Shown: positions 35,554 to 57,485, counted from the stretch's first letter. The stretch: 64,000 bases of DNA from an uncultured Candidatus Saccharibacteria bacterium (GCA_963797185.1 CAWCON010000001.1:7580-71579), one strand, 5' to 3'. The notes: generated by a model not told the origin, from the letters alone. Program-made: numbers and translations.

Positions 35554-38151
35554 ATGAAGTTATCAAAGACTTACGAACCATCAGAGTACGAGCAGGATAT
35601 CTATGCTCTATGGGAAAAGCAACAGGCTTTCGCCCCAGAAGGGGAGGGGCAGAGTTTCAGCCTTGTTCTGCCACCACCAAACGCTAACGGCTCTCTTCAT
35701 CTCGGGCAGGCTCTGACCGTTGGGCTGGAAGATATTGCCGTACGGTATCACCGCTTATTGGGTGAGCGGACTCTGTTTGTGCCCGGTGCTGACCATGCAG
35801 GTTTTGAGACCTGGGTGGTTTACGAGAAGAAGCTGGCGGCAGAAGGGAAGAGTCGTTTCGACTTCAGTCGAGAAGAGCTGTACGGCCAAGTCTGGGATTT
35901 CGTTGCCTCGAACCGTGAAAAGTTTGAAACGCAGCTAAGACGCTTCGGTGCCAGTACTGACTGGCAACACTTTACCTTCACCTTAGATGAAAAAATTGTC
36001 ACCCGAGCCTACGCTACCTTTAAGAAAATGTTCGATGAACATCTAATATACAGGGGTGAGCGATTAGTAAATTTTTGCACTTTTCACGGAACAAGCTTCT
36101 CTGACATAGAAGTAAAGTTCAAAGAAGAGCAGGGTATGCTGTGGTACATTCGATATCCGTTATCAGATCAGAAAGGCGAGATTATTATCGCCACAACAAG
36201 GCCAGAGACAATGCTCGGAGACACTGGTATTGCAGTACATCCAGACGACCCTCGCTACCATGCATTCGTCGGCAAAACGGCCAAATTACCCCTAGTAGGA
36301 CGCGATTTGCCAATTATCGCCGACGAGTTTGTTGATAAAGCTTTTGGAACTGGCGCCGTCAAACTTACCCCGGCTCACGACCCAAATGACTACGACGCTG
36401 CCAAAAAACATCACTTGCCGATGATCACGGTAATCACTCATGACGGTAAAATAGGGGGAGACGTACCGGATAAATATCGAGGATTAAGCGTTCTTGATGC
36501 TCGAAAGAAGATTATTGAAGACCTAACAGCACAAGGACTTGTCGTTAAGCAAGAGGAGATTACTCATAGCGTGGGGCATTGCTACAAATGCGACACCGTT
36601 ATTGAGCCGCTACTGAGCGAACAATGGTTTATAGATATGCAACCGCTGGCTCAGAAGGCAATTGCTGCCCTAGAGAGCAATCAAATTACTTTCTATCCTG
36701 CCACCAAAAAGGCACAACTCATCTCATATATGAAGCAACTGAAAGATTGGAACATTAGCCGGCAGATAGCGTGGGGCATTCCTATTCCGGCCTTTCAAAA
36801 CGTCGACGATCCTGATGACTGGATATATAACGAGCAGGTTGAGCATGAGCTCATAACGATCGGTAATAAAACATACCGTAGGGATCCAGACGTTTTCGAC
36901 ACATGGTTCTCTAGCTCATCATGGCCATATGCTACCCTTAACTTCCCCGACAGCCAGGACTTCAAAGACTTCTTTCCGTTAAGCCTTATGGAAACCGGTG
37001 GTGAAATTTTATATCCATGGGTATCCCGGATGATTATGCTTGGGTTGTACGTAACAGAGAAGGTTCCTTTTGAATCTGTCTATATTCACGGCTATGTGCT
37101 TGCCGAAGACGGCTCAAAAATGAGCAAAAGTATCGGTAATGTAATTGACCCCTTAGAAATTATTACCAAGTTCGGTTCAGATGCCCTCCGCATTGGACTC
37201 ATTAATGGTAGAGTCCCCTCGGTAAACAGAGGCTACGATCCGCGCAAAGTCGAAGAGGGGCGTAACTTCTGCAATAAACTCTGGAATATTGCCCGTTTCA
37301 TAGAAGATAGGGCAGATATCAATTTTAAACAGGCAGAGCATCCAAAAAGCCAAACACCGGCCGATCATTGGATATTGACTAAATTACAACATACTATCAG
37401 CGAAGAAAGTGAAGATCTGGCACATTATCGCTTTAGTGAAGCCTACGAACGTCTCTACCACTTTGTGTGGGATGATTTTGCAGACTGGTATATTGAAGCA
37501 TCAAAGCAGGAACCTAATCTTAGCATCTTGGGCACTTGCCTAGTTGCAATACTCAAGTTAGCTCATCCTTTTGCACCATTTGTGACAGAAACGATCTGGC
37601 AGACACTCGGATGGGAAACCAATTCGTTGCTGGCCACGAGCCGCTGGCCTGAAGTTCCCGGTGGAGATCCGGAACGTTATCAGGAGTTCGAAGAAGTAAA
37701 GAACATTATTACAGAGATGCGATATGTTATTAACACTCTACACCTCAAGAAGACAAAGTTGCACTATATCGCACCCCAGCACGTCAAGGAAAACTCTAAG
37801 CTAATCGAGCGTCTGACCAAGGTTGAAACGGTGACAGAAGTTCAGCTAGGTCCTGGCCTTCGTCTCGTCAATAACCCTTACCAGTGCTGGCTTGATGTTG
37901 ATAGTAAAACCATGAAAGAGTACATTGCTACCTTGGCAAAAAAAGAACAGCTCCAAGAAACGCTTGTCGCGAAGCTACTCGCTCGACTTGCAAATCCAAG
38001 CTATACAGCCAAAGCTCCCCAAGAGGTTATCGAGCAAACCAAAAAAGATATCTCTGATGCTCAGATAGTACTTGAGACTATTAAGCAGGAACACCAGCGG
38101 TTTGTTCCGCAACAGACGGTGAAGCCAACGGAGCCTCAGCCACAGGAGTAA
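35554..38151 (+). CDS. valS: Valine--tRNA ligase
   Basis: Track ORF of 865 aa with a PPPNANGSLHLGQA HIGH region, KMSKSIGN, a CP1 editing domain and a coiled-coil C-terminus. Confidence 0.97.
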   Translation: MKLSKTYEPSEYEQDIYALWEKQQAFAPEGEGQSFSLVLPPPNANGSLHLGQALTVGLEDIAVRYHRLLGERTLFVPGADHAGFETWVVYEKKLAAEGKSRFDFSREELYGQVWDFVASNREKFETQLRRFGASTDWQHFTFTLDEKIVTRAYATFKKMFDEHLIYRGERLVNFCTFHGTSFSDIEVKFKEEQGMLWYIRYPLSDQKGEIIIATTRPETMLGDTGIAVHPDDPRYHAFVGKTAKLPLVGRDLPIIADEFVDKAFGTGAVKLTPAHDPNDYDAAKKHHLPMITVITHDGKIGGDVPDKYRGLSVLDARKKIIEDLTAQGLVVKQEEITHSVGHCYKCDTVIEPLLSEQWFIDMQPLAQKAIAALESNQITFYPATKKAQLISYMKQLKDWNISRQIAWGIPIPAFQNVDDPDDWIYNEQVEHELITIGNKTYRRDPDVFDTWFSSSSWPYATLNFPDSQDFKDFFPLSLMETGGEILYPWVSRMIMLGLYVTEKVPFESVYIHGYVLAEDGSKMSKSIGNVIDPLEIITKFGSDALRIGLINGRVPSVNRGYDPRKVEEGRNFCNKLWNIARFIEDRADINFKQAEHPKSQTPADHWILTKLQHTISEESEDLAHYRFSEAYERLYHFVWDDFADWYIEASKQEPNLSILGTCLVAILKLAHPFAPFVTETIWQTLGWETNSLLATSRWPEVPGGDPERYQEFEEVKNIITEMRYVINTLHLKKTKLHYIAPQHVKENSKLIERLTKVETVTEVQLGPGLRLVNNPYQCWLDVDSKTMKEYIATLAKKEQLQETLVAKLLARLANPSYTAKAPQEVIEQTKKDISDAQIVLETIKQEHQRFVPQQTVKPTEPQPQE

Positions 38152-39745: not shown

Positions 39746-39838
39746 TGGCGGAGAGGGAGGGATTCGAACCCTCGATACCGTATAAAGCGGTATACCGCTT
39801 TTCGAGAGCGGCACCTTCAACCACTCGGACACCTCTCC
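39746..39838 (-). tRNA. tRNA-Ser (anticodon CGA), CCA encoded
   Basis: Manual cloverleaf: acceptor GGAGAGG/CCTCTCC, anticodon stem CCGCT/AGCGG with loop CTCGAAA, a long variable arm, a GAGGG-TTCGAATC-CCTC T-arm, and a 3' GCCA. Confidence 0.9.
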
Positions 39839-39920
39839 TTAACGAATCTATTTTAACAGACGACTGCTAGTGACATTGATTTAGATATGATAAAATTAGC
39901 CCCTGTTATACAAGATGTAC

Positions 39921-39996
39921 GCGCCCGTAGTTCAGCGGATAGAATGTCGGCTTGCGGAGCCGGAGGTCGCAGGTTCGAATCCTGCCGGGCGTACCA
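39921..39996 (+). tRNA. tRNA-Arg (anticodon GCG), CCA encoded
   Basis: Manual cloverleaf: acceptor GCGCCCG/CGGGCGT (G1-U72), D arm GTTC..GAAT, anticodon stem TCGGC/GCCGG with loop TTGCGGA, T arm GCAGG-TTCGAAT-CCTGC, and a 3' ACCA. Confidence 0.88.
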
Positions 39997-40950: not shown

Positions 40951-43827
40951 TTAACCGACACTAAGACGCATTAGCCTTAAGTTCTGACCTCCGCCACCTG
41001 TAGATGATGACGATCCTCCACTTGGGGCTTGGTAAACCTGCCATTCAGCACCCTGAAAAGCCTGATTAGCAGAGTTGAAAGTTGAAGAATTGTTGCCTAT
41101 GGTAGCAGCGGCAGAGTCGGGTTCTCCGGCGAGACTCGTCTGAGTCACTACCAACTTAAGCTTGGTAGCAGCACCGCTCAAAGAGAAGCTACCAGCAAAG
41201 GCTGAGGCATGATCCCACCAGGTAGTGCGCACTGCAGGGTCGACATTGCCGGGCGTTCCCGGAGCAGCCACTGAAACAGCGGTAGCATTTGAATAAGAGT
41301 AAACTGTGGTGTCAGATCCCCCAATAGTAGCAACAATCTCAAAGGCAATCGGTGCCGAGGCGCCATAGTTTTTACCCGACTGGCTCAGTAAACTAGGATT
41401 CCATGGAGGAACACCCTTTAGGGCAAAGATATAGCTACCAGCAGCAACGGTACCGCCAGAGCTGCCAAAGTTTGAGGCAACAACCGAGGCGGGAATTGTA
41501 GCATCGAAATAAGGCGCGCCCGGTGAAGGCGGATCGTTGATATAGTTATGCCCCCAGCTACCGCTTCCTATAGGACTAACTGAAGCTGATGATTCGTTAA
41601 CGAGCGTCTCCGCCGTCTGAACCAGGTTAGCCTGTACGTTTGCCACGCTGATTATATTGGAGCCCGTGTCGACCACAGATACAGTAGTGCTAAGAGGAAG
41701 AAACACAGCGGTTACGAGATCATCTGTTGGCACCGTAATTTGAGTACCGGTGACCGTGACCATGACCGGAGTTCCAAAGCCATTCTGAGCAGTGGCGGCT
41801 GACGCAGCGCCGGAAGATCCGACATTGAGAGTAACAGTGTCGGCAGTGAAGGTGGAAGCCAGAAGTATAACATCTCGTGATAGGGATGAGCTACTGTAGT
41901 GCAGCCCCAAGAAATGGGTATCTCCAGGCGAACTAGCTGAGCCGAAAGACAACTGGGTGGGTTTCGAGGTAGGAGAACAAGTAGTACCCCTTAGTGCCTC
42001 ACTCATAACGTGCATAGCGACAGCACCCGCACGGATACTGCCACCCTCAATAAATCCGGACGGATCAGAGGGATCAGCCCCAACAACAGTGTCAAAGAAG
42101 TATAGATTCTCCTTAGGGAAGCCGTTAAGTTCACGCACCATCGCTAACTTTGTACAGTGAGCAGCATGACGACGCATGTGGTAAACACCATAATAACAGC
42201 CGTAGTTGCCAGTTTCGGTGTCCCAGAAAGTCAGGTGTGGCGAAGAGGAGGCAGCAATGGCGGTGCTGATACCCCCATAATCTTGACGCAATGAAACTAT
42301 ATCCGGTTGATTCTCGTAACTATTCTCATGGTGGCCGCTGGTGCCGTTAAGACTCGTTGCATTAATAACGGCAGTAAATTCTGATGCCGAAGAATTATTA
42401 TAGATTCCGCCCGAGCAGTAGCCAATTAGCTTGGCGCTGGAATCAGCAGCCAAAATTGCAGTTGCGTCGGTGTTAATACCAGAAATGATGTTTGCTTGAC
42501 TCCACCCCTCATCCTCGGGTTCATTGGTTGGCACCTCATACGTCGCGCCACTGAAACCATTTGTTACCATCTGACTGACGAAGGTGCCGTATTGTGCGGC
42601 TGTTGGGCTTTGATATGTTCCTGAGGTACTAGTAGCGAGCCATAAGGTATGGGGTCGTGCTGAGTCGAGACCTGGTCCTTGGAAGTAGGGATCGCTCGCA
42701 TAGTTAGAAGCAATTTGAGAAGCCGATGATTGGGGCCAACTGTACTGACCGCGATCCTGGGCGGTACCCATCCAGGCGCAGAGTGCGAAACTATTGCCAG
42801 TGCTGACGGTATAGCCTTCGGCTACTGGATCAAAGCCTTGGGGAGTCGCTCCAACATAGAAATAGCAACCAATAGGTTGGGGACTAGTAACAAAGCTACC
42901 GGAAGCACCGGCAACGGTAGCATGCTGGAGAACTAATACATTACCTACCGTGTGTGGACTGACGTTAACAACGTACGAAGACGCGCCACTAGAGGAGTTG
43001 CCATTCGTCCACACGCCAACATGAGACATTGAGATCGAGCCAGTACCACTGGCTCCAAGAATAACTCCCGTGGCGTAGCTAACTCCTGCTGATGCCTGCG
43101 AGCAAGTCGGTGAAGTAGTGCCTGAAGAAAGATTAAGATTATAACAAAAGGCAGCTGGATTGGCGCCTGTTCCATTTTGAGGCGTATAGGTATATCCACT
43201 CGTACTGCCAGCGCTTATCGTCGAACCCCCACCTTCGGCACACCCTACATAGAGCTGATTATTAGCGGTAGCTGTAAGGGAAGGGAATGCTACCGTCGTA
43301 CTCGATCCATTTGTGACAACACTACTGTTAATCTGAGCCCAGGTAGGCGAAGATAGACCTGAAGAGAACTCATCTATCTCAGCGCTCCACAACTGAGCGC
43401 CAGGGATACCTGATACATAAAGAGGAATGTTCGATCCCGTAGTAGTGACTTCACCCCACCAAATTTCTTCATCATTCTGACCGCTGGTGGGAGCTGAAGC
43501 TTGGTGCCAAGTAGCAACACCGCCACCTTGTACCGATGGCGCAGATTGGTTAACGACAAACTGATAATCATCGATCCCAACAGAGCCACCACTAACCCAA
43601 ACTCCTGATGTGGCGACAGTAATCTGGCTGACAGTTGTGGCGCATGTACCACTGGCCACTGTTGCTCCACTGCTGTTGTAAACCGTCCAAGATGTGGCGC
43701 CAATCGGGTACAAACCATCAGAAACTCCGCCTTGACCATAGCCATTAATAACAATGGTCGGCGTGTCGGCGTGTCGGTAAATCCCTTCCCACGCGTTGGC
43801 AGTAACGGTGACAGTATAGGCAGACAT
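40951..43827 (-). CDS. Large Ser/Thr/Gly-rich protein with a central clan GH-A-like glycoside hydrolase signature and a discoidin/CBM-like C-terminus; no signal peptide
   Basis: Track ORF of 958 aa. YEVPTNEPEDEGW (aa 430-442) resembles the acid/base NEP motif. FWDTETGNYG (aa 534-543) resembles the nucleophile TE motif, about 100 aa downstream. The C-terminus has AEWQVY. Confidence 0.55.
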   Translation of the reverse strand: MSAYTVTVTANAWEGIYRHADTPTIVINGYGQGGVSDGLYPIGATSWTVYNSSGATVASGTCATTVSQITVATSGVWVSGGSVGIDDYQFVVNQSAPSVQGGGVATWHQASAPTSGQNDEEIWWGEVTTTGSNIPLYVSGIPGAQLWSAEIDEFSSGLSSPTWAQINSSVVTNGSSTTVAFPSLTATANNQLYVGCAEGGGSTISAGSTSGYTYTPQNGTGANPAAFCYNLNLSSGTTSPTCSQASAGVSYATGVILGASGTGSISMSHVGVWTNGNSSSGASSYVVNVSPHTVGNVLVLQHATVAGASGSFVTSPQPIGCYFYVGATPQGFDPVAEGYTVSTGNSFALCAWMGTAQDRGQYSWPQSSASQIASNYASDPYFQGPGLDSARPHTLWLATSTSGTYQSPTAAQYGTFVSQMVTNGFSGATYEVPTNEPEDEGWSQANIISGINTDATAILAADSSAKLIGYCSGGIYNNSSASEFTAVINATSLNGTSGHHENSYENQPDIVSLRQDYGGISTAIAASSSPHLTFWDTETGNYGCYYGVYHMRRHAAHCTKLAMVRELNGFPKENLYFFDTVVGADPSDPSGFIEGGSIRAGAVAMHVMSEALRGTTCSPTSKPTQLSFGSASSPGDTHFLGLHYSSSSLSRDVILLASTFTADTVTLNVGSSGAASAATAQNGFGTPVMVTVTGTQITVPTDDLVTAVFLPLSTTVSVVDTGSNIISVANVQANLVQTAETLVNESSASVSPIGSGSWGHNYINDPPSPGAPYFDATIPASVVASNFGSSGGTVAAGSYIFALKGVPPWNPSLLSQSGKNYGASAPIAFEIVATIGGSDTTVYSYSNATAVSVAAPGTPGNVDPAVRTTWWDHASAFAGSFSLSGAATKLKLVVTQTSLAGEPDSAAATIGNNSSTFNSANQAFQGAEWQVYQAPSGGSSSSTGGGGQNLRLMRLSVG

Positions 43828-43915
43828 TAATGTAGCCCTGTGGACGTAATCAGGTTTGCTGCGCTCATCTTATCAACCCTCACGTAAGCTGTTTTGCTAC
43901 CACAGCGGCTCACCA

Positions 43916-45808
43916 TTAGATATTCTGTCCTCGAATAGAGGCGATCCAATTAGTACCGTCATCACAGTGAAACGTAAAAGAATCCATCTTGTTTGCAGCG
44001 GTCGTAAGCGTTGGGGCAGAGCCACCAGGCCACTTAAGACTACCAAACCATGTAACGGTACGTGAACCAGTACCATCTTGGAGTAAATCAAGATCAAACC
44101 ATACACCAACGCCAGCAGTTGGAGCCGTAAGAGTACAGTTGGCAGTTAGTTCAAGGTAGTTAATTTGCGCCGCCAAGAGTGTTTGGGTTGTCCCAGAGCT
44201 AGCCACTGTATGAACTGTCTGTGTTCCCGTATAAGCAGCTACAACATCCCAAGTATTAGCGGCAGTTTGAACAGCAACTAATGTGCCGTATTGAGACATG
44301 ACGGTCAGAGAACCATGCACAGTAACTCCAGCGCCAGCAGCCACGGTCAGAGAACCAGTGCCAACTTGACGGAAGACCGCCATAGAGCCAACCGGAGCAT
44401 CTACTGAACTGTTTGGTGGGATAGTAACCGTACCCGCAGAGCTAGAGTTGTAATCCCCCTCGGCTCCTATATCAGTTGCAGATAATGTCCAGCCAGATGA
44501 ATAGCTGTTGATAGTAACTGGTGTTTGTGGAATCTGATCCAAGGGAGTGTCATCAGTTAAAACATACCAGATTGCAGATGATGTTGTGTATTGAAGTATG
44601 GCACCTTGATGAAGAAGTTGCAGAGTTAAACTGGTAGCACCTGATACGATATTAAAAACATCACCACCACTAGCGCTAATCGTCAGCGTGTTGCCAAGCG
44701 TGCTCTTAATAATCTTTACCCCGATCTGGGATTTATCAGAAGGAGCATGCGGTAAGGTGACGGTAACGCTTGCACTCGACACATCAACGGGCACAAAATC
44801 TCCAACACTTGCATTATAGGCGCTCGTTTTAACAGCAGTGGGTGCTAGCTCTGAAGCAGCTGAAGGTGTCGCCCAGGTAGCTGCAGAGCTACTACTGGCA
44901 GTAATGACTTGGCCGGAGGATGGAGTACCAGTAACTGCTACTCCATTAACCTTAGCCACTGTAGGAGAAGGCAGAGTACCACTAAGGTCTCCACCAGCTG
45001 TGGAGGAGATGGTAGCGGCTGTTCCTAGTCCTAAGTTTGTTCTGGCAGTGGAAGCTACTGCTACATCAGATAAGTTATTACTGGCTTGTAGAAGTCCAGT
45101 CACTGCACCAGTCATACCATCAACTGAGGATACTGCTCCACCTCCACCTGATGGTGTAGCCCAGGTAGCAGCTGAGGATGAGGAGGCAGTAATAACCTGG
45201 CCGGAGGATGGAGTACCAGTAACTGCTACTCCATTAACCTTAGCAACCGTTGGAGATGGAAGGGTGCCTGAGAGATCTCCACCAGCAGTAGAGGAGATGG
45301 TAGCTGCGCTACCAAGACCGAGGTTTGTGCGGGCAGTAGAAGTACTCGCTAGATCACTTAGGTTGTTAGCCTTCTGAGCTGCTCCAGCTACCGTAGTATT
45401 AGCAGAGATGATAGCCTCTACGTTAGTAGAGTTAGTGATAGTTGGAGTCGTAGCCGTACCAGCAAGATCACCAGCGAGTTGAATTAAGCCTGGGGTACTG
45501 GTAGTAGCATTGTTGACGGTAGTACTGGATACCGTACTCGGTATCCAGCTATTGCTGGAACTGTTATAGGCCAGTACTTGGCCATTACTGGCAGAAGAAG
45601 CGGTGGTGGTATCAGCCAGATTAGTTAGTTTAAGACTGAGGGCTCCACTGGTAGGAGTAAGCGAATTAATACTAGTGATAGCTCCTGCTGATTGGAGGGC
45701 AGTGGTAGAGAGGGTGCCATCAGTGTTTAACGAGACTCCGAGGAAACCATTGAGGATAGATCCCCAAGTGCCATCATCACTACCTGGTATTGGAAGTCGT
45801 TGGGTCAT
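43916..45808 (-). CDS. Phage-tail-fibre-like protein with an internal tandem duplication; no signal peptide
   Basis: Track ORF of 630 aa. The N-terminus LPIPGSDDGTWGSILNGFL and the twice-repeated NNLSD...ARTNLGLG motif are characteristic of tail-fibre and minor-tail proteins. Confidence 0.6.
   Translation of the reverse strand: MTQRLPIPGSDDGTWGSILNGFLGVSLNTDGTLSTTALQSAGAITSINSLTPTSGALSLKLTNLADTTTASSASNGQVLAYNSSSNSWIPSTVSSTTVNNATTSTPGLIQLAGDLAGTATTPTITNSTNVEAIISANTTVAGAAQKANNLSDLASTSTARTNLGLGSAATISSTAGGDLSGTLPSPTVAKVNGVAVTGTPSSGQVITASSSSAATWATPSGGGGAVSSVDGMTGAVTGLLQASNNLSDVAVASTARTNLGLGTAATISSTAGGDLSGTLPSPTVAKVNGVAVTGTPSSGQVITASSSSAATWATPSAASELAPTAVKTSAYNASVGDFVPVDVSSASVTVTLPHAPSDKSQIGVKIIKSTLGNTLTISASGGDVFNIVSGATSLTLQLLHQGAILQYTTSSAIWYVLTDDTPLDQIPQTPVTINSYSSGWTLSATDIGAEGDYNSSSAGTVTIPPNSSVDAPVGSMAVFRQVGTGSLTVAAGAGVTVHGSLTVMSQYGTLVAVQTAANTWDVVAAYTGTQTVHTVASSGTTQTLLAAQINYLELTANCTLTAPTAGVGVWFDLDLLQDGTGSRTVTWFGSLKWPGGSAPTLTTAANKMDSFTFHCDDGTNWIASIRGQNI
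44861..45370 (-). repeat. Intragenic tandem duplication with a 288-nt (96-aa) period inside the fibre-like gene
   Basis: Residues 148-219 and 244-316 differ at 4 positions. A 47-nt stretch is identical at 44910-44956 and 45198-45244, while the flanks are recoded. Confidence 0.9.
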
Positions 45809-45969: not shown

Positions 45970-46959
45970 TTAGGTACTTATTTCAAGATGTCGCCGTAAT
46001 GAATCAGCTATTCTTGGATTGCTCATTGCTTCCTGTAAAACACTGACCGTCAATCCAACCTCGATAAGGTGTGCTTGAGCCGTGCGAGCCGCTTGATTAT
46101 CACCAATAACCCGAAATGACCCAATAGATTCACGTAGGTCATCAACTGCCCGTAAATTATTCATCACCGCCATTGTTCCATAATGGGTACTTGTGACATG
46201 GATAATGTTACTACCAGCTAGTCCGAATTCATCTCCGACTACTCCCGGATTATTAACGAGTGCTTGGTACGCATTAAAAACACCTGTCTGCTTTGAGCCA
46301 TCTGATCGTAGTGCTGGCGTCGTTGCCAGAACCACCATTGAAGCTCCGCTAGGATGACGCATGCGCAAAAACGCTGAACCATCAGGCAAAAAACGTACAC
46401 CATAACGATTGCCTGACAATGGTTCGAAACCTTTAACGATTGCAGAGTCAACAAATAGCTCTAATTCGTTAGTGGCTTCTGGCGCAAAGCCCGCTACCGT
46501 CTCACGCTCCTTACTTGACAAAACACGTCGTGGGTCAACGGTTGCTACAATAGGTTGTTCCTCTAAGCCATGAGCTTCAACATAACTAAGGGCTGTTTCT
46601 ATACGCTCCTTATTAGCATTATTGGCTGCACCGACGACATTTAGTAATGTGTTTGGTAAATGCTGCAGGTGAGCTACCTCTTCACGTGCGAAGATAACTG
46701 GTCCACCACCACGCATTTGCAGTTTATCGCTTAAGCCCATTACGTCAGACTCAGCACCTTCTGGCACCTTTAGGGCAGGTATCCCGGTAACGTTAGAGGA
46801 CCAAAGAGCCACCATAGTTGCCGGATTTGCATCATTAGCATCCTCCGGCAGTTTTCCTGCTTGAAGACGCCATCTCTCTACCCGTACACCACTTCTGGCC
46901 ACATCGGGGTGCAATAGTGGTGCGATATTAAAGACATCTTCAGAGGATGCCGCAGCCAT
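45970..46959 (-). CDS. Hypothetical protein (329 aa), first large gene of the fibre cluster
   Basis: Track ORF with no recognisable motif, no signal peptide and no TM helix. Confidence 0.6.
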   Translation of the reverse strand: MAAASSEDVFNIAPLLHPDVARSGVRVERWRLQAGKLPEDANDANPATMVALWSSNVTGIPALKVPEGAESDVMGLSDKLQMRGGGPVIFAREEVAHLQHLPNTLLNVVGAANNANKERIETALSYVEAHGLEEQPIVATVDPRRVLSSKERETVAGFAPEATNELELFVDSAIVKGFEPLSGNRYGVRFLPDGSAFLRMRHPSGASMVVLATTPALRSDGSKQTGVFNAYQALVNNPGVVGDEFGLAGSNIIHVTSTHYGTMAVMNNLRAVDDLRESIGSFRVIGDNQAARTAQAHLIEVGLTVSVLQEAMSNPRIADSLRRHLEIST

Positions 46960-46970
46960 CCGCTCAGTTA

Positions 46971-47099
46971 CTACAGTGTAGAGGATAGACCGGGGTCCTT
47001 TAATTCAATTAAAAGAGGACGAGCAATTTGGCTTGCAACCTCTACGGAAACCTGACAAGCCTCTGGCTGTCCTGCTAATTGTTCAGTACTGCTAATCAT
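46971..47099 (-). CDS. Possible 42-aa leader ORF
   Basis: Own translation: MISSTEQLAGQPEACQVSVEVASQIARPLLIELKDPGLSSTL. It ends 11 nt before the 329-aa ORF start. A TATAAT box lies upstream on the minus strand. Confidence 0.25.
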   Translation of the reverse strand: MISSTEQLAGQPEACQVSVEVASQIARPLLIELKDPGLSSTL

Positions 47100-47192
47100 T
47101 ATTCGCTATACCTTTACTATGGAAATCCATCTGATTAATGAGAATCTACCTAGCATAATTATACCATCAGATAGCTGATCATAGCTATAATA

Positions 47193-47221
47193 TTGACATT
47201 TGAACAAGCTTGTGTTAATAA
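47193..47221 (+). promoter_or_regulatory. Sigma-70-like promoter for the 47251 gene
   Basis: TTGACA (47193-47198), a 17-nt spacer, then TAATAA (47216-47221). Confidence 0.45.
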
Positions 47222-47250
47222 TTACAGGTCCTTTTTTAAAACAAAAAATT

Positions 47251-47610
47251 ATGTCAGCCAACAATCAAGAATCACCACAGTCACAACAACGAATATCGAA
47301 CTCGTTACGCGTAGCGATTAGCATGGCAGCTTTGGCTAGTCTGCAGACACCGAACATAGGAGAAGAATCAGTAATCCAGTCCCAACCAGCTGCTGTTGCT
47401 TCCGCATCTCCCGAACTGACAAGTCTAGACGAAACTGCCTCCATGATTAACTCGTTTCCAGCTGAGGCCCCGAGTGCTGGTGCTTCGGACATGACGCTAA
47501 ACCCTTCTCTGCATATCAACCTTAACTCAACAGGTGAGCTAGCTCACGAGCAATACGTTTCTCCGGGCGACATACCAGCTACAGCTCAAGAGTATATGGA
47601 CAACAACTAA
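47251..47610 (+). CDS. Acidic, low-complexity hypothetical protein
   Basis: Track ORF trimmed to ATG 47251 (MSANNQESPQ...); 119 aa, Ser/Ala/Glu-rich. Confidence 0.45.
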   Translation: MSANNQESPQSQQRISNSLRVAISMAALASLQTPNIGEESVIQSQPAAVASASPELTSLDETASMINSFPAEAPSAGASDMTLNPSLHINLNSTGELAHEQYVSPGDIPATAQEYMDNN

Positions 47611-47758
47611 AGTTGCCTATAAAGCGGTTGTTAATGACGGCAAACTCCAGTTTGTACCCGAGAACAACTCAAGCCAAAACCCTAGTTCATAACGACAAGA
47701 TCCTTCAGCTTTATTCAGCCTATCAAGGTTCAAATGTACGTGTAATATACTGCTCTCT

Positions 47759-49124
47759 TTAATATCGAGGTTGATGTAATGACGGTACGGGAGCGACCGG
47801 TCGCGCGGGACGAATAACCATCGTTGGGAATTGTGGGTTTGCATTATTCAGCTGGCCTGGAAGCGGCGGGTAGTTACTATAATTTGTAGTCTGGACAATA
47901 GACGGTTGGTTTTGTAAATCATAATCTAACCTGTCGTTAGCTGCCAGTCTCTTTTTCGTCAACATTCGTGCCACAAAGGAGCCAATTATTATCAGCAAAA
48001 GAAAGCTTGAGAAACTAATACCAGCTACATAAAAAGCTGTTTTCTTCGAGTTTAGTGGTTTTGTGGGCTGCACCTTTAAGGTCTGGATTGGTGCAACGGT
48101 TACAGGAGTTGTCGTAGTGGCTTGGGGGCTTACGATGGGCTGCGAAGTCGGGGCTGGAGTTGAAGTCGGGGCAGTAGTCTTAGTGGTCGATGCCGGTGGA
48201 GTGGTGTGTGTTGGAGTAGTTGCAACCGGCGTAACAGGAGGTTGATTGATATTCTGCCATAAATATCCGGCCGAATGACAGCGGGGCGTCGAACCCCCAA
48301 TGACAAAATCCACATAGCCACCAGGACTCTCGGCATAGATATCAGAATTCGGCATTGTCGAATAACTGCTGACGGCACTATTCGGTACAAGGCCACCATT
48401 GGCAGTTATCTCTAAATTAACGTGCCACAGCGGTACCGGATAGAGAGTATCGCCATTATTATCCCAGAATTCCGTCCATGATCCCGCCGCCATCGTGGAA
48501 ACTGGCAGGGACGCTGGCGTTAGCTCGCGGGAATCGTATGCTGCCGATATACTGCTCAGCTTGACCGGGGAAAGTTATATAGTAAGCAAACCAATCGCCC
48601 GTTCCGTCATAGTTGGTTCGCACCATCCTGACTCCATACTGTCCAGTAGGAAGATCGCCAAAGTTGTGTCTGAGGCTGATGAATTGGGACCCCGTCTCTG
48701 TGCCGTTTGTTTCGGTCGATCCGGGTCCAAGTTCGATGTTGCTCAAATCAGACGTGTTCCACTGCGAGAATATGGCCATTCCAGTAGTTTGCAGTCCAAA
48801 ATACTGTCCAGTGTTATCAATATTAGCGTCATACAGCTGCAAGTATTCATCGCTAGTACTGCCGGGATCGTTTAGTATATTAATCTTATACTGCAAAGAG
48901 GAAATACTTTGCGAAGTGTCAAAATCCCAGTTAGTGTATGTCATACCACCGACAGGCGGTGGCGGGTAGTTTGTCGGAGACACACAAGCACTGGCATCGA
49001 GGCTGTCGCTAATGTGAACAACTTTAATCGACAATGCAGAGAATACTAGAACCCCTATACCTAAACCAAACAGTGTGAGGTTGGCAATTGTAGTAATCTC
49101 GTGTTTTAGATTTTTTATTTTCAT
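47759..49124 (-). pseudogene. DUF3472-like surface protein split by a 1-nt frameshift (paralog of 49221-50300)
   Basis: Track ORFs 48459-49133 and 47759-48493 overlap in different frames. Homology to the neighbouring paralog continues across the junction. Removing one G from GGCGGCGGG (48483-48491) restores ...PASFHDGGGSWTEFWDNNGD... Confidence 0.55.
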
Positions 49125-49220
49125 TACTAACAAGCCTACTATACCATTACCGTTCTGAATTTTCTCCCTTAGACAAAGTCAATTTTTTCCTACTACGTAC
49201 TGGCTAGCGAGGATACCTTG

Positions 49221-50300
49221 CTAATATTTTTTTCGTCGGTATACGCTCAATCCCCAACGACAATCCATATATAAGGCAACCGCTGCAATAATGATCAAAG
49301 AGTACACGGTAATACGCTCAGTTTGAGACACTCTTTTTGTATTCTTCAATTGAATGGTCTCGGGCTTGCTGACACTTTGAGCGCTCATTGGGGATTTAAT
49401 TGGCGTAGGTGATGGTGTCGATACTGCCGGGCTAGGCGTGGTAACGACGGGCGTTGTGATGGTTGGAGCGGGTGATGGCGTTGGTTTCGGGCTAGCAGGG
49501 AGTGACGGTATCGCAGCGGCCGGGAATTGACCACCGATAATAGTCTCTATACCACCGGCTATGTCTCTCGTAGCAAAGTCAGCAGCACACGCCGAGTTAG
49601 TTGGCGCCACATTACTATGCGAAGAGGGAGTTACTGCCCCATTATTCGCCGTTAGGTTTGTGAACTTTACCTCCGACAAAATCAAACTTCCGCAACTGCT
49701 TGTATCACCGGCGTACCGTTCGTGAAATGTATAGGATTGATCGAGTAAATTACCCATACTAGTGGGAGTAACGATATTACCGACCAGCGATTGCACACCG
49801 CTTGTTTGATCTATGACGGTAGCGGTCCAGGTGTTACCGCCAGAGGATTGGCTTGTTAAAGCTATTCGGATGTCGTAGGTGTTATTAACTGTCCATGGGT
49901 AGGAGATTCGGGACGTATAGTATGTCGCTCCAACCTCAGTTCCTGAGGCGTTATAGCCGGGCCCACTAGAAGAGGTAGCTCCCCAGATAGAGAAGACAGC
50001 AATTTTACCGGTAGGATTATCGCCTTCGGTTTGCAAACCCATATAGCCGCCATACCCCTGTGGGTCACCCGTGAACCAAAAACCTGAAGAGAAATAATAG
50101 CCATCAGGTGATCCATCGGCTTCAGGAGTTATATCGGTATCCAACTGCGTGTAACCACTTGGAGCGTTGGGCCACGTCCAGTAGGTATCATCAAAATGGG
50201 TTGGGTCCGTAAGCGGGTCAGCATATACCGGTAAGCGGAGGCCTGCGCTTGTTAGTAGTGCCAAGAACAAAATAAGAATACAACGTTTTAGAATAGTCAT
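49221..50300 (-). CDS. Surface protein: signal peptide, DUF3472-like domain, Pro/Thr linker and C-terminal TM anchor
   Basis: Track ORF of 359 aa. Signal peptide MTILKRCILILFLALLTSAGLRLPVYA; DUF3472-like motifs GGYMGLQTEG..KIAVFSIWGA and YTFHERYAG; linker PKPTPSPAPTITTPVVTTPSP; TM helix VYSLIIIAAVALY followed by RRKKY. Confidence 0.7.
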   Translation of the reverse strand: MTILKRCILILFLALLTSAGLRLPVYADPLTDPTHFDDTYWTWPNAPSGYTQLDTDITPEADGSPDGYYFSSGFWFTGDPQGYGGYMGLQTEGDNPTGKIAVFSIWGATSSSGPGYNASGTEVGATYYTSRISYPWTVNNTYDIRIALTSQSSGGNTWTATVIDQTSGVQSLVGNIVTPTSMGNLLDQSYTFHERYAGDTSSCGSLILSEVKFTNLTANNGAVTPSSHSNVAPTNSACAADFATRDIAGGIETIIGGQFPAAAIPSLPASPKPTPSPAPTITTPVVTTPSPAVSTPSPTPIKSPMSAQSVSKPETIQLKNTKRVSQTERITVYSLIIIAAVALYMDCRWGLSVYRRKKY

Positions 50301-50593: not shown

Positions 50594-52228
50594 TTAGTGC
50601 TGGTCGAAAACACGAGCCTCGGCATCCGGCATCCATGCTAAAGTAGTCCCTCGACTTCGACAGACTACCTTAACCTCGGTATCGGCCTTGGAGACTTTTT
50701 CAGGCGTCGAAGTATAGGTTGCCTGAATTAAGCCAAGACCAGTATCGGCTAACACCATGGGGGCATCGGGCTTCACGAAGAAGCTATCGCTTGACGCAAC
50801 GCCATTTCGCAAGTCATGACCATGCGCCTTTGCCTTATCAACGGCATAGATGCAGGCAGTTACCCGCGATTGTTGGCCGGCACTATTACCGACTAGCTGT
50901 CCTTCGTTAACCAAGGTAATGGTATTGCTATTACTGGTGGCACAGATAGCCGAAGCCATCACGACGTCCAGCTGTTGCTGCTCCGTTAACAGCTCGCCGA
51001 TAACTTCCAGCCGATCCAATGGCAACACAAAGGTGTTGGCCGGCTGCATTAGGAAATCACCACCCACAAGCTCTCGTCTTACCATGCGGCGGTCAAGCGT
51101 TTCCATCGACAAATTTGCTAAAGCGGGGTTGACCGTCATAACGTATTTGCCGTCACGGCGGGCTGCGATCGCCTGGGCAATTGGTTCAATGTCCGGCGCA
51201 CATATGCCGTCAAAAATCCTGGGGGGATCACCTTTCGGCACGCCGTAGTAGCGCAAGACTTTCGCAAGCTCCTCGTCAATCGGGAAGTTTGTCATCAGGA
51301 TCGACCCGAATACGGATTGCGGGTCGCCCATGACCGTCTTTTGCAAAACACTAACCGGATCGCTGCCAAAGGCCGCCCCACAGGCATTGCCATGCTTAAC
51401 GGCCACCGCCATTAGCGGAACCGTACCGAAATTGTAGTCATGACCTGCAGCCATTCTGGTGATGGTCCGGATAACTCGGTTCATATCCGTATAGTTGATA
51501 TAGCTTGGCTGCCGACCGTCCACGAGCCTAAAGTTCGTAACTGCAAGTGGATAAGTGTTATTCGGATTGCGGAACAAGTAAGCAGGTGTCTGATAGCGAT
51601 TCTCGCCATAGTCACAAACCGCCACTCGCTCTCCGAACGAAGCCACTAACTCACCGGACGACAGGAATTCCGCTGAGACCATCCCATATTGCGCCACCGT
51701 AAACTCACCGTAAGCTGCCAGTTGACGAAGAAATTCTTCAGTTATTTCTTCGCCTGAGCGCAATTTTGCAACGACGCTCTCGAATTGCGCGTCATTCGTC
51801 ACGACAATTCGTCGGCCCTTAGCGCCTGAACGAATCATGGCAGGCCCGCCGATATCGGTTTTAGCAGTCACTGATTCTTCAGTAGCCTTAGGATTGGCGA
51901 TCTCTTCAGCGAGAGGATAGGGATCCACATATACCAAGTCGATATACGGTGCTCCCATTCCCTCAAGCGCCCGAAGGTCGGCCTCAATAGTAGCTCGAGA
52001 CAGTAGTCCGCCATGGATTTCACGAGACAAGGTTGAAACGCGACCGTCCATAACCTTTTCGCCAACGATGGTTTGGATATCTACAACGGCTATCCCAGCT
52101 GCCTCTAACTCCTTTGCCGTTCCTCCTGATGCATACAGTCGCCAACCGAAGTTAAACAATGTTCGGGCACCAGCAAAAAACTTATCGGTCTTGTGATAAA
52201 CCGACAGCAATGCATTCTTTTGAGTCAT
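50594..52228 (-). CDS. purH: Bifunctional AICAR transformylase / IMP cyclohydrolase-like protein (divergent PurH)
   Basis: Track ORF of 544 aa. N-terminal MGS-like domain (ALLSVYHKTDK...SGGTAKEL...GRVSTLSREIHGG...DIGGPAMIRSGAKG). AICARFT motifs YGENRYQ, VKHGNACG, SNSNTI and AGQQSRV. Confidence 0.88.
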   Translation of the reverse strand: MTQKNALLSVYHKTDKFFAGARTLFNFGWRLYASGGTAKELEAAGIAVVDIQTIVGEKVMDGRVSTLSREIHGGLLSRATIEADLRALEGMGAPYIDLVYVDPYPLAEEIANPKATEESVTAKTDIGGPAMIRSGAKGRRIVVTNDAQFESVVAKLRSGEEITEEFLRQLAAYGEFTVAQYGMVSAEFLSSGELVASFGERVAVCDYGENRYQTPAYLFRNPNNTYPLAVTNFRLVDGRQPSYINYTDMNRVIRTITRMAAGHDYNFGTVPLMAVAVKHGNACGAAFGSDPVSVLQKTVMGDPQSVFGSILMTNFPIDEELAKVLRYYGVPKGDPPRIFDGICAPDIEPIAQAIAARRDGKYVMTVNPALANLSMETLDRRMVRRELVGGDFLMQPANTFVLPLDRLEVIGELLTEQQQLDVVMASAICATSNSNTITLVNEGQLVGNSAGQQSRVTACIYAVDKAKAHGHDLRNGVASSDSFFVKPDAPMVLADTGLGLIQATYTSTPEKVSKADTEVKVVCRSRGTTLAWMPDAEARVFDQH

Positions 52229-56006: not shown

Positions 56007-57485
56007 CTACTTGGAAGCTAAGACTTTCGCTCTACTATCCTTACTGAGAGTAACCGGTACTTCCGTTGGATAGATGCCCGTCATGCAGCTCATACACAAC
56101 GCTCCGATATGCTGTTCTGATTTGTCGTTTTGACTTTCAATACCTTCGATAACGCGTTCGAGGCTTAAAAATTCTAGGGAATCGGCTCCAATGTATTCAC
56201 GTATTTCTTCGATGCTTTTTTTGTGGGCAATCAGCTGTCCAACGTCATGTGTATCCATCCCAAAGTAGCAGGGCCAAGCATAGGGTGGTGAAGGAATGCG
56301 TACATGTACTTCCGCAGCTCCCATATCCCTGACCGACGACACTAACTGCTTCGTTGTAGTGCCTCGTACGATCGAATCGTCAACCAGCACAATACGTTTA
56401 CCGTCAATCATGCTGCGGTTTGGCTGGTGCTTCAGCCGGACTGACTGCACGCGAGTCATCTGATTTCCTTCAATAAAGGTGCGGTTAATATATGGGTTCT
56501 TAGTGATCGCCAATTCCTCAGGAATACCAGTTTGATGAGAATACCCACGCGCATACAGCGCACCTGAGTTTTGAACCCCGACTACCATATCAGCCTCTAC
56601 GGGATGATCAGCACCCAAGAGCCTTCCTAACTGTTCTCTGACTTTATAAACGTTTCTGCCAAGTAGTAAACTATTTGGGTGAGAAAAATAGATGTACTCA
56701 AACATACAAAAACTTTCTTGAGGCTCTGCCGATAGCTTTTCCGAGCGCAACCCATCTTGCTCAACTATAATAATTTCTCCCGGCTCAACATCTCGTATAA
56801 ACTCAGCCCCTACCACATCAAAAGCAATCGTTTCTGAAGCCAGCATGGTACCGCCATTTGGCAGCTTACCGATTGACAAAGGCCGATAGCCTCGGGGATC
56901 CCGCACGCCGATTAAGCGGTTAGGTTCGTTAATAACCAGATTAAATGCACCCTCCAGCGTCGGTAATAATACGTGTATTGCTTCAACAAGATCGCCTCGT
57001 TCCTGGTACATTTCATCAAGCAAATGAGTAAGAGATTCACTGTCACTTTCGCAGTCGCTGACATCGAATCCTAGCCTTTTGGCTGTTTCGCCGATACCTT
57101 CCATATGACCATTATGCCCGAGTGCAAATCTCCCGCTTGGTGCCGGAAAAGGTTGCGCGAGTCGAGCATTTTCCTTTGAAGATGTTTTACCTGAGGTACT
57201 ATAGCGATCATGACCGATAAGTGCCGGACCTGTTGCCTGATACATCAACACCCGTAAGTTTTCATCCTTTAAGGCCTCCGTCACAAGACCGCTATTCTTC
57301 TCTATGTGAAGATCGGCTCCATTAAATACAGCCATGCCCGCACCAGTTTGGCCGCGGTGCTGTAGAGCCTGCATCCCATCAAAAACCGTATGAACAGTAT
57401 CATTGAGTGCGTATATACCGATTAGTCCGCAAGCTTCGCCGGGTTTATCAGACTCAATAGATGATAGTTGTTCCAGGTCTGTTAT
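56007..57485 (-). CDS. purF: Amidophosphoribosyltransferase (Fe-S type with propeptide); non-canonical start inferred
   Basis: The track ORF begins at ATG 57374 (MQALQHRGQ). The in-frame upstream sequence encodes ...GEA-CGLIGIYALNDTVHTVFDG-, i.e. the catalytic N-terminal Cys. GGAGGG lies 6 nt before ATA 57485. Fe-S ligand motifs are WPCYFGMDT and CMSCMTGIYP. Confidence 0.85.
   Translation of the reverse strand: MTDLEQLSSIESDKPGEACGLIGIYALNDTVHTVFDGMQALQHRGQTGAGMAVFNGADLHIEKNSGLVTEALKDENLRVLMYQATGPALIGHDRYSTSGKTSSKENARLAQPFPAPSGRFALGHNGHMEGIGETAKRLGFDVSDCESDSESLTHLLDEMYQERGDLVEAIHVLLPTLEGAFNLVINEPNRLIGVRDPRGYRPLSIGKLPNGGTMLASETIAFDVVGAEFIRDVEPGEIIIVEQDGLRSEKLSAEPQESFCMFEYIYFSHPNSLLLGRNVYKVREQLGRLLGADHPVEADMVVGVQNSGALYARGYSHQTGIPEELAITKNPYINRTFIEGNQMTRVQSVRLKHQPNRSMIDGKRIVLVDDSIVRGTTTKQLVSSVRDMGAAEVHVRIPSPPYAWPCYFGMDTHDVGQLIAHKKSIEEIREYIGADSLEFLSLERVIEGIESQNDKSEQHIGALCMSCMTGIYPTEVPVTLSKDSRAKVLASK

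Follow-up and report, generated by a model that had tools for sequence, protein, structure and literature searches.

The 64,000-nucleotide stretch analysed here, from an uncultured Candidatus Saccharibacteria bacterium (GCA_963797185.1, CAWCON010000001.1:7580-71579; hereafter the window), carries two neighbouring minus-strand genes, of which one encodes a 630-amino-acid (aa) protein composed of phage tail-fibre and baseplate modules and the other a 958-aa protein predicted to be a glycosidase. We read this pair as a chromosomal, phage-derived receptor-binding cassette, a reading to which we assign a probability of about 0.5. The source genome is small and probably belongs to Saccharimonadales (Patescibacteria). 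The fibre-like protein belongs to a multi-copy family that is found mainly in Saccharimonadales genomes and outside recognisable prophages.

The 630-aa gene lies upstream and is followed, after 88 bp, by the 958-aa gene. Both open reading frames (ORFs) put forward by a first-pass annotation made from the sequence alone are real, and every motif quoted there was located in the translations: NNLSD at residues 148 and 244 and ARTNLGLG at residues 159 and 255 of the 630-aa protein, and TNEPE at residue 434, WDTETG at residue 535 (101 residues later) and AEWQVY at residue 927 of the 958-aa protein. The same annotation had described both proteins as free of membrane anchors and signal peptides, and this was borne out by a maximal Kyte-Doolittle hydropathy over 19 residues of 1.2–1.4, as well as by inspection of the two N-termini, neither of which resembles a signal peptide. 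No convincing terminator or promoter was found in the gap between the genes. Such sites were no more frequent there than in shuffled sequences, and the two genes may be co-transcribed. The pair and its parts are listed below.

43916..45808, minus strand: gene of the 630-aa phage-tail-fibre-like protein (ORF, DUF5907, PHROG, homologs, fold matches)
45689..45808, minus strand: N-terminal module, aa 1–40, conserved in the fibre family
44813..45388, minus strand: two tandem 96-aa repeats, aa 141–236 and 237–332, DUF5907-type fibre shaft repeats
44549..44851, minus strand: C-terminal beta-module C1, aa ~320–420 (phrog_4302; predicted local distance difference test score, pLDDT, 92–97)
44219..44518, minus strand: 'minor tail protein' module C2, aa 431–530 (phrog_8780 and phrog_21510)
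43919..44218, minus strand: tail fibre tip module C3, aa 531–630 (phrog_9017, phrog_24774 and phrog_7760; pLDDT 86–91)
43828..43915, minus strand: 88-bp intergenic gap, with counts of promoter- and terminator-like sites not above the shuffled expectation
40951..43827, minus strand: gene of the 958-aa modular glycosidase (ORF, HMMER homologs, AlphaFold2 model)
43549..43827, minus strand: N-terminal beta segment, aa 1–93, kept in every class of glycosidase homologs
42868..43548, minus strand: inserted beta-module (N-module), aa 94–320, a fold family without a PDB sequence match
41908..42867, minus strand: predicted clan GH-A (beta/alpha)8 catalytic barrel, aa ~321–640 (model, Foldseek, GH39 profile match)
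42520..42525, minus strand: codons of N435 and E436 in the NEP motif, predicted acid/base after strand beta4, invariant in 40 homologs
42214..42216, minus strand: codon of E538, predicted nucleophile at the end of strand beta7, invariant in 40 homologs
41023..41907, minus strand: C-terminal beta-sandwich domains, aa 641–935, ending in AEWQVY (model)

An integrated prophage was not recognised around these genes. In line with the earlier statement that no other phage genes occur within 64 kb, Pfam searches of about 45 ORFs returned housekeeping families or no match, and no phage structural, integrase or lysis gene was seen among the annotated ORFs of the window. Within this part of the 479-kb contig no phage structural module surrounds the fibre gene. 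The tRNA-Ser/tRNA-Arg pair near by was rejected as an attachment site, since no att-like direct repeat was found to flank it. GC content of the pair region (0.47–0.50) stayed within the range of the window (0.42–0.51), with no sign of a GC island.

Phage modules and chromosomal family of the 630-aa protein

The proposal that the 630-aa protein is made of phage tail-fibre or baseplate modules held in Pfam, PHROG, PDB repeat, phage tblastn and Foldseek comparisons. DUF5907 (PF19264) was detected at residues 100–174 with 29.8 bits against a Pfam gathering cutoff of 27, while residues 320–627 matched several PHROG tail families, including phrog_9017 (tail fibre, 4.7e-11) and phrog_8780 (minor tail, 4e-9). 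Module C3 also corresponds to the precomputed family PF26209, named Phage_phiTE_241_C. The 96-aa repeats are a tandem duplication, each unit carrying NNLSD...ARTNLGLG, and they match the repeats of the short tail fibre gp92 in PDB entry 9zd7 as well as seven viral contigs of the IMG/VR database.

Alignment by tblastn to 50,697 phage genomes produced matches in 184 records, of which 168 were Gordonia phages, mostly with the product name 'minor tail protein'. All of these matches fell within residues ~365–630 or within the repeats, and never reached the N-terminus. The C-terminal modules thus resemble minor tail proteins of actinobacteriophages (mainly of Gordonia) and PHROG families 9017, 8780 and 7760, with 35–49% identity over 85–160 residues; the same 35–49% applies to Gordonia phage minor tail proteins aligned to C2. 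Only single modules are held in common, however, and at most 41% of the query is covered by any one phage protein. Moreover, the fibre gene is placed in a cellular chromosome of ~45% GC, whereas Gordonia phages infect high-GC Actinobacteria.

The AlphaFold2 model of the monomer had a predicted template modelling score (pTM) of 0.34, a low value of the kind expected for a fibre, with confidently modelled modules at residues 320–420 and 540–625. Significant Foldseek matches to this model were exclusively phage baseplate or fibre structures: a phage KP1 baseplate chain (1.6e-10), 6o38 (2e-6), the N-terminal domains of CBA120 TSP4 (3e-4), and T4 gp9 and gp10. Judging by the model, at least some of the C-terminal modules are predicted to have a gp10-like fold.

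The two repeats were also compared with each other. Their protein core is identical at 61 of 62 positions, with a nucleotide identity of 68%, and 33 of 71 codons for identical residues differ synonymously. This divergence may stem from an ancient duplication whose protein sequence was almost absolutely constrained, from selection against identity at the DNA level, or from one unit having been imported from a paralog.

The first-pass annotation had counted both the repeats and the N-terminal motif LPIPGSDDGTWGSILN as phage hallmarks. The designation suits the repeats, given DUF5907 and gp92, but the databases do not recognise the N-terminal motif as such: it had no PHROG match and was found in none of the 50,697 phage genomes. 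A degenerate DNA pattern for the invariant part of this motif gave a single match in 2.9 million viral contigs. On the matching contig (L024, 62% GC) the N-terminal module opens a 1309-aa tailspike, next to genes for a tail fibre and an endolysin. The module is overwhelmingly chromosomal in this lineage, though present on one phage contig.

A total of 1054 homologs of the 630-aa protein were collected. The consensus MTQRLPxPGxDxGxWGxILNxFLxVS..DGTL starts at Met1 in 85 of the 119 family members listed, and eleven columns of the 40-residue module are invariant. Across GTDB representative genomes, eight of 11 loci were assigned to Saccharimonadales, Saccharibacteria or Patescibacteria, all matching through the N-terminus. 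Several copies per genome are common: paralogs P0016 and P0040 share the 479-kb contig of the window, a related 546-kb contig has six paralogs, and individual loci contain four (L015), three (L008 and L042) or two copies (L007 and L013). Beyond the N-terminus, module C1 is common to the fibres of L013, L038, L040 and L042 at 40–56% identity. The N-terminal module would act as an adaptor by which the fibre is docked onto a carrier structure. No description of this fibre family was found in the literature: a query for DUF5907 gave no papers, and a paper on Patescibacteria genetics makes no mention of tail fibres.

Neighbourhoods of 20 kb around seven other family members contained no recognised capsid, portal, terminase or tail tube gene. 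L013 and L015 both have two-component systems and tRNA synthetases as neighbours. The former locus also contains an exosortase, a pyruvyl transferase, a paralog with a pectate-lyase fold and a protein that weakly matches GH39, malectin and PA14, and the latter ArsP and a histidine kinase. In L038 (127-11752) a seemingly complete type IV secretion cluster precedes the fibre gene by ~2 kb (TrbC pilin, TrbL, VirB4-like ATPase, CHAP, VirD4-like protein), and unannotated genes for 576- and 918-aa proteins come after the fibre gene, an arrangement seen on at least 22 contigs. L040 has a GH113 gene, transporters and a VirD4-like gene 7 kb away. In L041 (4928-14576) the fibre gene is divergent from a type IV pilus operon (PilB, PilC, pilin, PilM) and is followed by a 233-aa gene, a gene for a pectate-lyase-fold protein and recA. 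A 'tail fibre-like protein' has been noted in passing as consistently located near the pam pilus operon across the Candidate Phyla Radiation (CPR; bioRxiv 10.64898/2026.03.03.709456), which is likewise a CPR gene beside a surface-filament locus, as is the L041 paralog. Unlike that protein, the fibre of the window has no pilus genes around it.

Locus L042 (113-15450) is a 15-kb co-directional island without Pfam matches, flanked by TatA, penicillin-binding protein and LigA genes. Besides three fibre paralogs and an fn3/PKD protein, it encodes three paralogs of ~260 aa that are rich in glycine (…SGTYTVPxGVTxLxxxxxGGGGGGGG…) and a 529-aa protein with a weak mannanase match (E = 0.005). As the island has no Pfam match at all, it could hide an unrecognised phage module, and it could be either a fibre island or the tail module of an unrecognised CPR prophage. 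The 529-aa protein was not retained as GH5-like: it lacks the NEP motif, and its mannanase match is tentative. Similarly, the 961-aa protein of L013 with the weak GH39 match was discarded as a relative of the 958-aa protein, to which it has no similarity, and a common docking region in the genes downstream of fibres was ruled out by the lack of homology among those genes.

The 958-aa protein, its relatives and their fibre partners

At sequence level the 958-aa protein had no Pfam match at E <= 1, no PHROG or PDB match, and no match in the phage genome collection or the viral contigs. Exhaustive HMMER searching gave 198 homologs, which revealed the modularity of the protein (a profile search of an indexed database gave only two). 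The first-pass annotation had claimed a (beta/alpha)8 barrel with catalytic glutamates in TNEPE and WDTETG, and both the fold and the placement of the two residues were upheld by the structural model, by Foldseek, by invariance in 40 of 40 homologs and by alignment to glycoside hydrolase (GH) family 39. In the AlphaFold2 model (pLDDT 84.3, pTM 0.81), eight beta-alpha units occupy residues ~320–620; N435 and E436 follow strand 4 (429–431), H499 is in strand 6 and E538 in strand 7 (533–540). Together with E431, these four residues are invariant in an alignment of 40 C-module homologs. A family profile matched GH39 beta-xylosidases at 3.9e-8, covering only beta4 to beta7, where NEP aligned to the GH39 acid/base motif of the same letters and TE to the nucleophile motif TE(W). 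Foldseek matches of the model included GH30 (4e-11), GH39 (2e-10) and PslG (4e-8), and also GH79, GH51 and GH86, with a probability of 1.00 to GH30, GH39, GH79, GH51 and GH86; in the viral library the top matches were phage GH5 proteins.

Conservation and modelling together mark the 958-aa protein as a probable clan GH-A glycosidase of the retaining type, in which E436 would serve as the acid/base and E538 as the nucleophile. Because its score for GH39 (PF01229) stayed below the Pfam threshold, it seems to belong to an unclassified family within the clan, which is defined here. The (beta/alpha)8 barrel with beta-sandwich, the NEP acid/base and the TE nucleophile are features that it has in common with GH39 (including the Psl exopolysaccharide hydrolase PslG), GH30 and GH79, and its distant homologs lie within polysaccharide loci, as does pslG. 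It differs from GH39 and PslG in having no Pfam GH family match, a GH39 sequence match limited to beta4–beta7, no leader, an insert of ~230 aa, extra C-terminal domains and a fibre gene as its partner.

The N-terminal beta segment (aa 1–93) is probably part of a beta-sandwich packed on the barrel, and the beta-sandwiches at aa 641–935 are possibly carbohydrate-binding. Of the discoidin-like ending described earlier, the AEWQVY segment is present and has a counterpart in the family consensus (...LAEFQVYQ), while the discoidin label itself went unconfirmed: a Pfam search of isolated C-termini gave no match for the window protein or for eight of nine homologs tested, the C-terminus of P0002 reaching F5_F8_type_C_2 at a weak, below-cutoff E = 0.007. 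Five or six of 40 full-length homologs matched F5/8 type C or galactose-binding-like families somewhere along their length, and one viral F5/8 type C protein matched the 958-aa model by fold (4.4e-4).

Three classes of homologs could be distinguished. The first consists of high-GC (65%) proteins of ~739 aa with a twin-arginine (Tat)-type signal, TRRQxLxGAG, and without the inserted module. Two of its members are situated in polysaccharide loci, one (L032) with a Wzy polymerase, GT1 glycosyltransferases, a Wzz/BY-kinase and a low-molecular-weight protein tyrosine phosphatase (LMW-PTP), and the other (L030) with a pyruvyl transferase, a sugar C-methyltransferase and an epimerase. Both keep the beta segment of aa 1–93 after the Tat-type signal. 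They represent exported enzymes in a polysaccharide locus, as in PslG, an arrangement that the window protein does not have. L032 had also been considered as a siphophage tail module on account of its gene sizes (1067, 343 and 438 aa), and its polysaccharide-gene neighbours ruled this out. Leaderless homologs with an N-terminal coiled coil form the second class (P0128, P0132, P0137 and P0140). The third comprises leaderless homologs like that of the window, which adjoin a gene with a C2 module in L026, L034, L035 and L036.

A fibre-type gene therefore lies beside a leaderless glycosidase homolog on five independent contigs, including the window, and pairing with the C2 module is specific to the leaderless glycosidase class. 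The partner in L026, separated by a gap of 4 bp, is a fibre of 651 aa whose N-terminus differs and is of the classical fibre type.

The inserted module (aa 94–320) links the two families in another way. It forms the C-terminal end (aa 528–682) of the fibre paralog P0018, and occurs in P0003 (L001 11162-11650), whose gene, on a phage contig, immediately follows one of tape-measure size (1045 aa). With a length of ~170–230 aa (SGGGVxTW…ELYxG…GSTxGFTY) it was present in more than 100 proteins, often at the very C-terminal end of giant proteins or by itself in proteins of ~220 aa, and was missing from the polysaccharide-locus homologs. A PDB profile search gave no significant match. Its frequent position at the distal end of proteins suggests a binding domain. 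Going by these sequence relationships, the fibre and glycosidase families appear to exchange domains.

Readings of the pair

In the mechanism that we propose for a receptor-binding cassette, the fibre would trimerise and attach by the N-terminal module to a common carrier, borne either by the cell surface or by a particle, and its distal modules would bind a glycan on the envelope of a partner or host, plausibly an actinobacterium. The glycosidase, either recruited by the fibre or acting alongside it, would cut surface or extracellular polysaccharide and so open access to the cell wall; the pair would in this way be used against the host envelope. The type IV secretion or pilus machinery near some paralogs is a candidate export route, a lead rather than evidence. 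Cultivated Saccharibacteria are described as growing on Actinobacteria (PMC10633639), and Gordonia amarae as parasitised by one Saccharimonadia relative (PMC11880426). The link to an actinobacterial host is circumstantial, resting on these cultivated hosts, on the Gordonia-phage modules and on the high-GC polysaccharide-locus homologs.

The first-pass annotation had suggested a domesticated phage adhesin and depolymerase. This is consistent with the multi-copy, non-phage fibre family and with the recurrent pairing, which make it plausible rather than demonstrated; none of the findings named there as contrary to the idea was made inside the window. A more far-reaching version, possible but on balance doubtful, is that of a phage host-recognition apparatus domesticated by Saccharimonadales. 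Interchangeable leaderless fibres and tailspike-like enzymes with one N-terminal adaptor would then be mounted on a surface machine of the cell, be it a pilus, a type IV secretion system or one yet to be described, and distal modules exchanged with phages of the same hosts would set which bacteria the episymbiont binds and breaches.

Known phage systems offer several parallels. The modules of the 630-aa protein recall CBA120 (TSP2/TSP4, with gp10-like XD domains) and T4 gp9/gp10, through their matches to TSP4 N-terminal domains, gp9, gp10 and the KP1 baseplate. In CBA120-type phages, gp10-like domains are docking sites for further enzymatic tailspikes, and the adjacent glycosidase gene is a parallel to this docking. 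Unlike CBA120 and T4, however, the pair has no virion genes near by and carries a different, nearly Saccharimonadales-specific N-terminal module; unlike in CBA120, the partner enzyme is a predicted TIM barrel rather than a beta-helix tailspike. A fibre or adaptor gene followed by that of a polysaccharide-cleaving enzyme (predicted here) is also the arrangement of phage depolymerase receptor-binding proteins, and the phage GH5 fold matches agree with this, whereas the 958-aa protein has no detectable homolog in the phage genome collection and its context is cellular. Phage receptor-binding modules held in a cellular genome are of a known kind, and we rate this fibre/glycosidase pairing as a variant of it.

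Several points weigh against a cassette of cellular surface proteins. Neither protein has a recognisable export signal, and this fits virion proteins released by lysis, not surface proteins. As one tailspike of a phage-like contig begins with the N-terminal module, a phage or tailocin carrier is plausible. The negative result for phage genes covers 64 kb of the 479-kb contig, and there are no type IV secretion or pilus genes in the window. The genes downstream of fibres in different loci are non-homologous and the monomer pTM is 0.34, so that a contact between fibre and enzyme is speculative. The contigs L034–L036 are short and of high GC and could be phage fragments, and the excess of Gordonia phages may partly reflect phage sampling.

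Some of these points lead to an alternative that we consider on the unlikely side, namely that the two proteins are virion or tailocin parts whose particle is encoded elsewhere in the genome, with interchangeable fibres and tailspike enzymes scattered over the chromosome and released by lysis. Both proteins are leaderless as virion proteins are, their overall architecture is phage-like, and the use of one N-terminus by many paralogs resembles alternative fibres for a single baseplate. The L024 tailspike beside tail fibre and endolysin genes, the N-module homolog P0003 after a tape-measure-sized gene in a phage contig, and the unannotated co-directional 15-kb run of L042 as a possible unrecognised tail module all point the same way. 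The fibres of tailocins and contractile injection systems are phage-derived, chromosomal and exchangeable at their distal end, but they adjoin sheath, tube and baseplate genes, and none of these was found at the window or in the seven related neighbourhoods. Structural, packaging, lysis and integration genes are absent from the 64-kb window and from those 20-kb neighbourhoods alike. In addition, three to six or more paralogs are present in genomes whose largest contigs are ~0.5 Mb, and the rarity of the N-terminal motif in viral sequences (one of 2.9 million contigs, none of 50,697 phage genomes) argues against a virion part.

It is improbable that the enzyme remodels the surface or extracellular polysaccharide of its own cell in the manner of PslG, with the fibre-like protein as a structural surface protein of that cell. 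The nearest cellular relatives with clear context are indeed in Wzy-dependent biosynthesis loci, PslG is among the top fold matches, and the 10 kb upstream include genes for YfhO and DUF3472; no polysaccharide biosynthesis locus surrounds the pair in the window, however, and the locus homologs are Tat-signalled without the N-module, whereas the window protein is leaderless with it. A phage-type fibre as partner, and C2 pairing confined to the leaderless class, also disagree with such a role. Very improbable is nutrient scavenging, with a fibre-like carbohydrate-binding scaffold and a glycosidase degrading environmental polysaccharide as food: clan GH-A includes many xylanases, mannanases and glucuronidases, and related loci encode GH113, a weak GH39/malectin/PA14 protein and pectate-lyase-fold proteins, but the pair adjoins no sugar transporter or catabolic genes and has no secretion signal, and the homologs of the fibre modules are virion proteins rather than known scaffoldins or arrays of carbohydrate-binding modules.

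How ultrasmall CPR episymbionts recognise and attach to their hosts is largely an open question; type IV pili, type IV secretion systems and a few adhesins are the players known (PMC10633639, PMC12206443). If the receptor-binding cassette is real, chromosomal multi-copy phage-type receptor-binding proteins and glycosidases would be testable candidates for determinants of host range, and an episymbiont and phages would draw on one pool of host-binding modules. The conserved 40-residue N-terminal module defined in this analysis may point to a new route by which leaderless proteins are docked or exported.

Surroundings of the pair

Pfam families identified in the window include UDG, PNPase, TruB, HolA, Fpg, PolA, RpoD, DnaG and ArgRS; two-component systems, PGI, GroEL, Mur ligase, TsaD, ValRS and HIT; and a methyltransferase, DUF3472, PurH, YfhO, PurF, Crp and BrkB.

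Genes for tRNA-Ser(CGA) and tRNA-Arg(GCG) at 39746-39996 are divergent, 82 bp apart and ~1 kb downstream of the pair. They directly adjoin the methyltransferase gene that precedes the fibre/glycosidase pair, with no integration scar found. Further along, the ValRS gene (plus strand) and a gene for a helix-turn-helix (HTH)-HAD fusion (minus strand) converge and, as the ORFs are listed, share 71 bp at their 3' ends (38081-38151).

Upstream of the pair, positions 45970-50300 are occupied by a run of poorly annotated minus-strand genes. Besides the DUF3472 protein, they encode a 329-aa protein without a family, a protein of 244 aa that is rich in Pro and Thr and has a single hydrophobic segment, and a protein of 224 aa with such a segment at its N-terminus. 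These may be surface proteins functionally tied to the pair.

PurH is encoded at 50594-52228 and PurF at 56007-57374. Genes for de novo purine synthesis are not usual among the reduced and host-dependent Saccharibacteria known to date, and their presence means either that the taxonomic placement should be revisited or that this lineage is less reduced.

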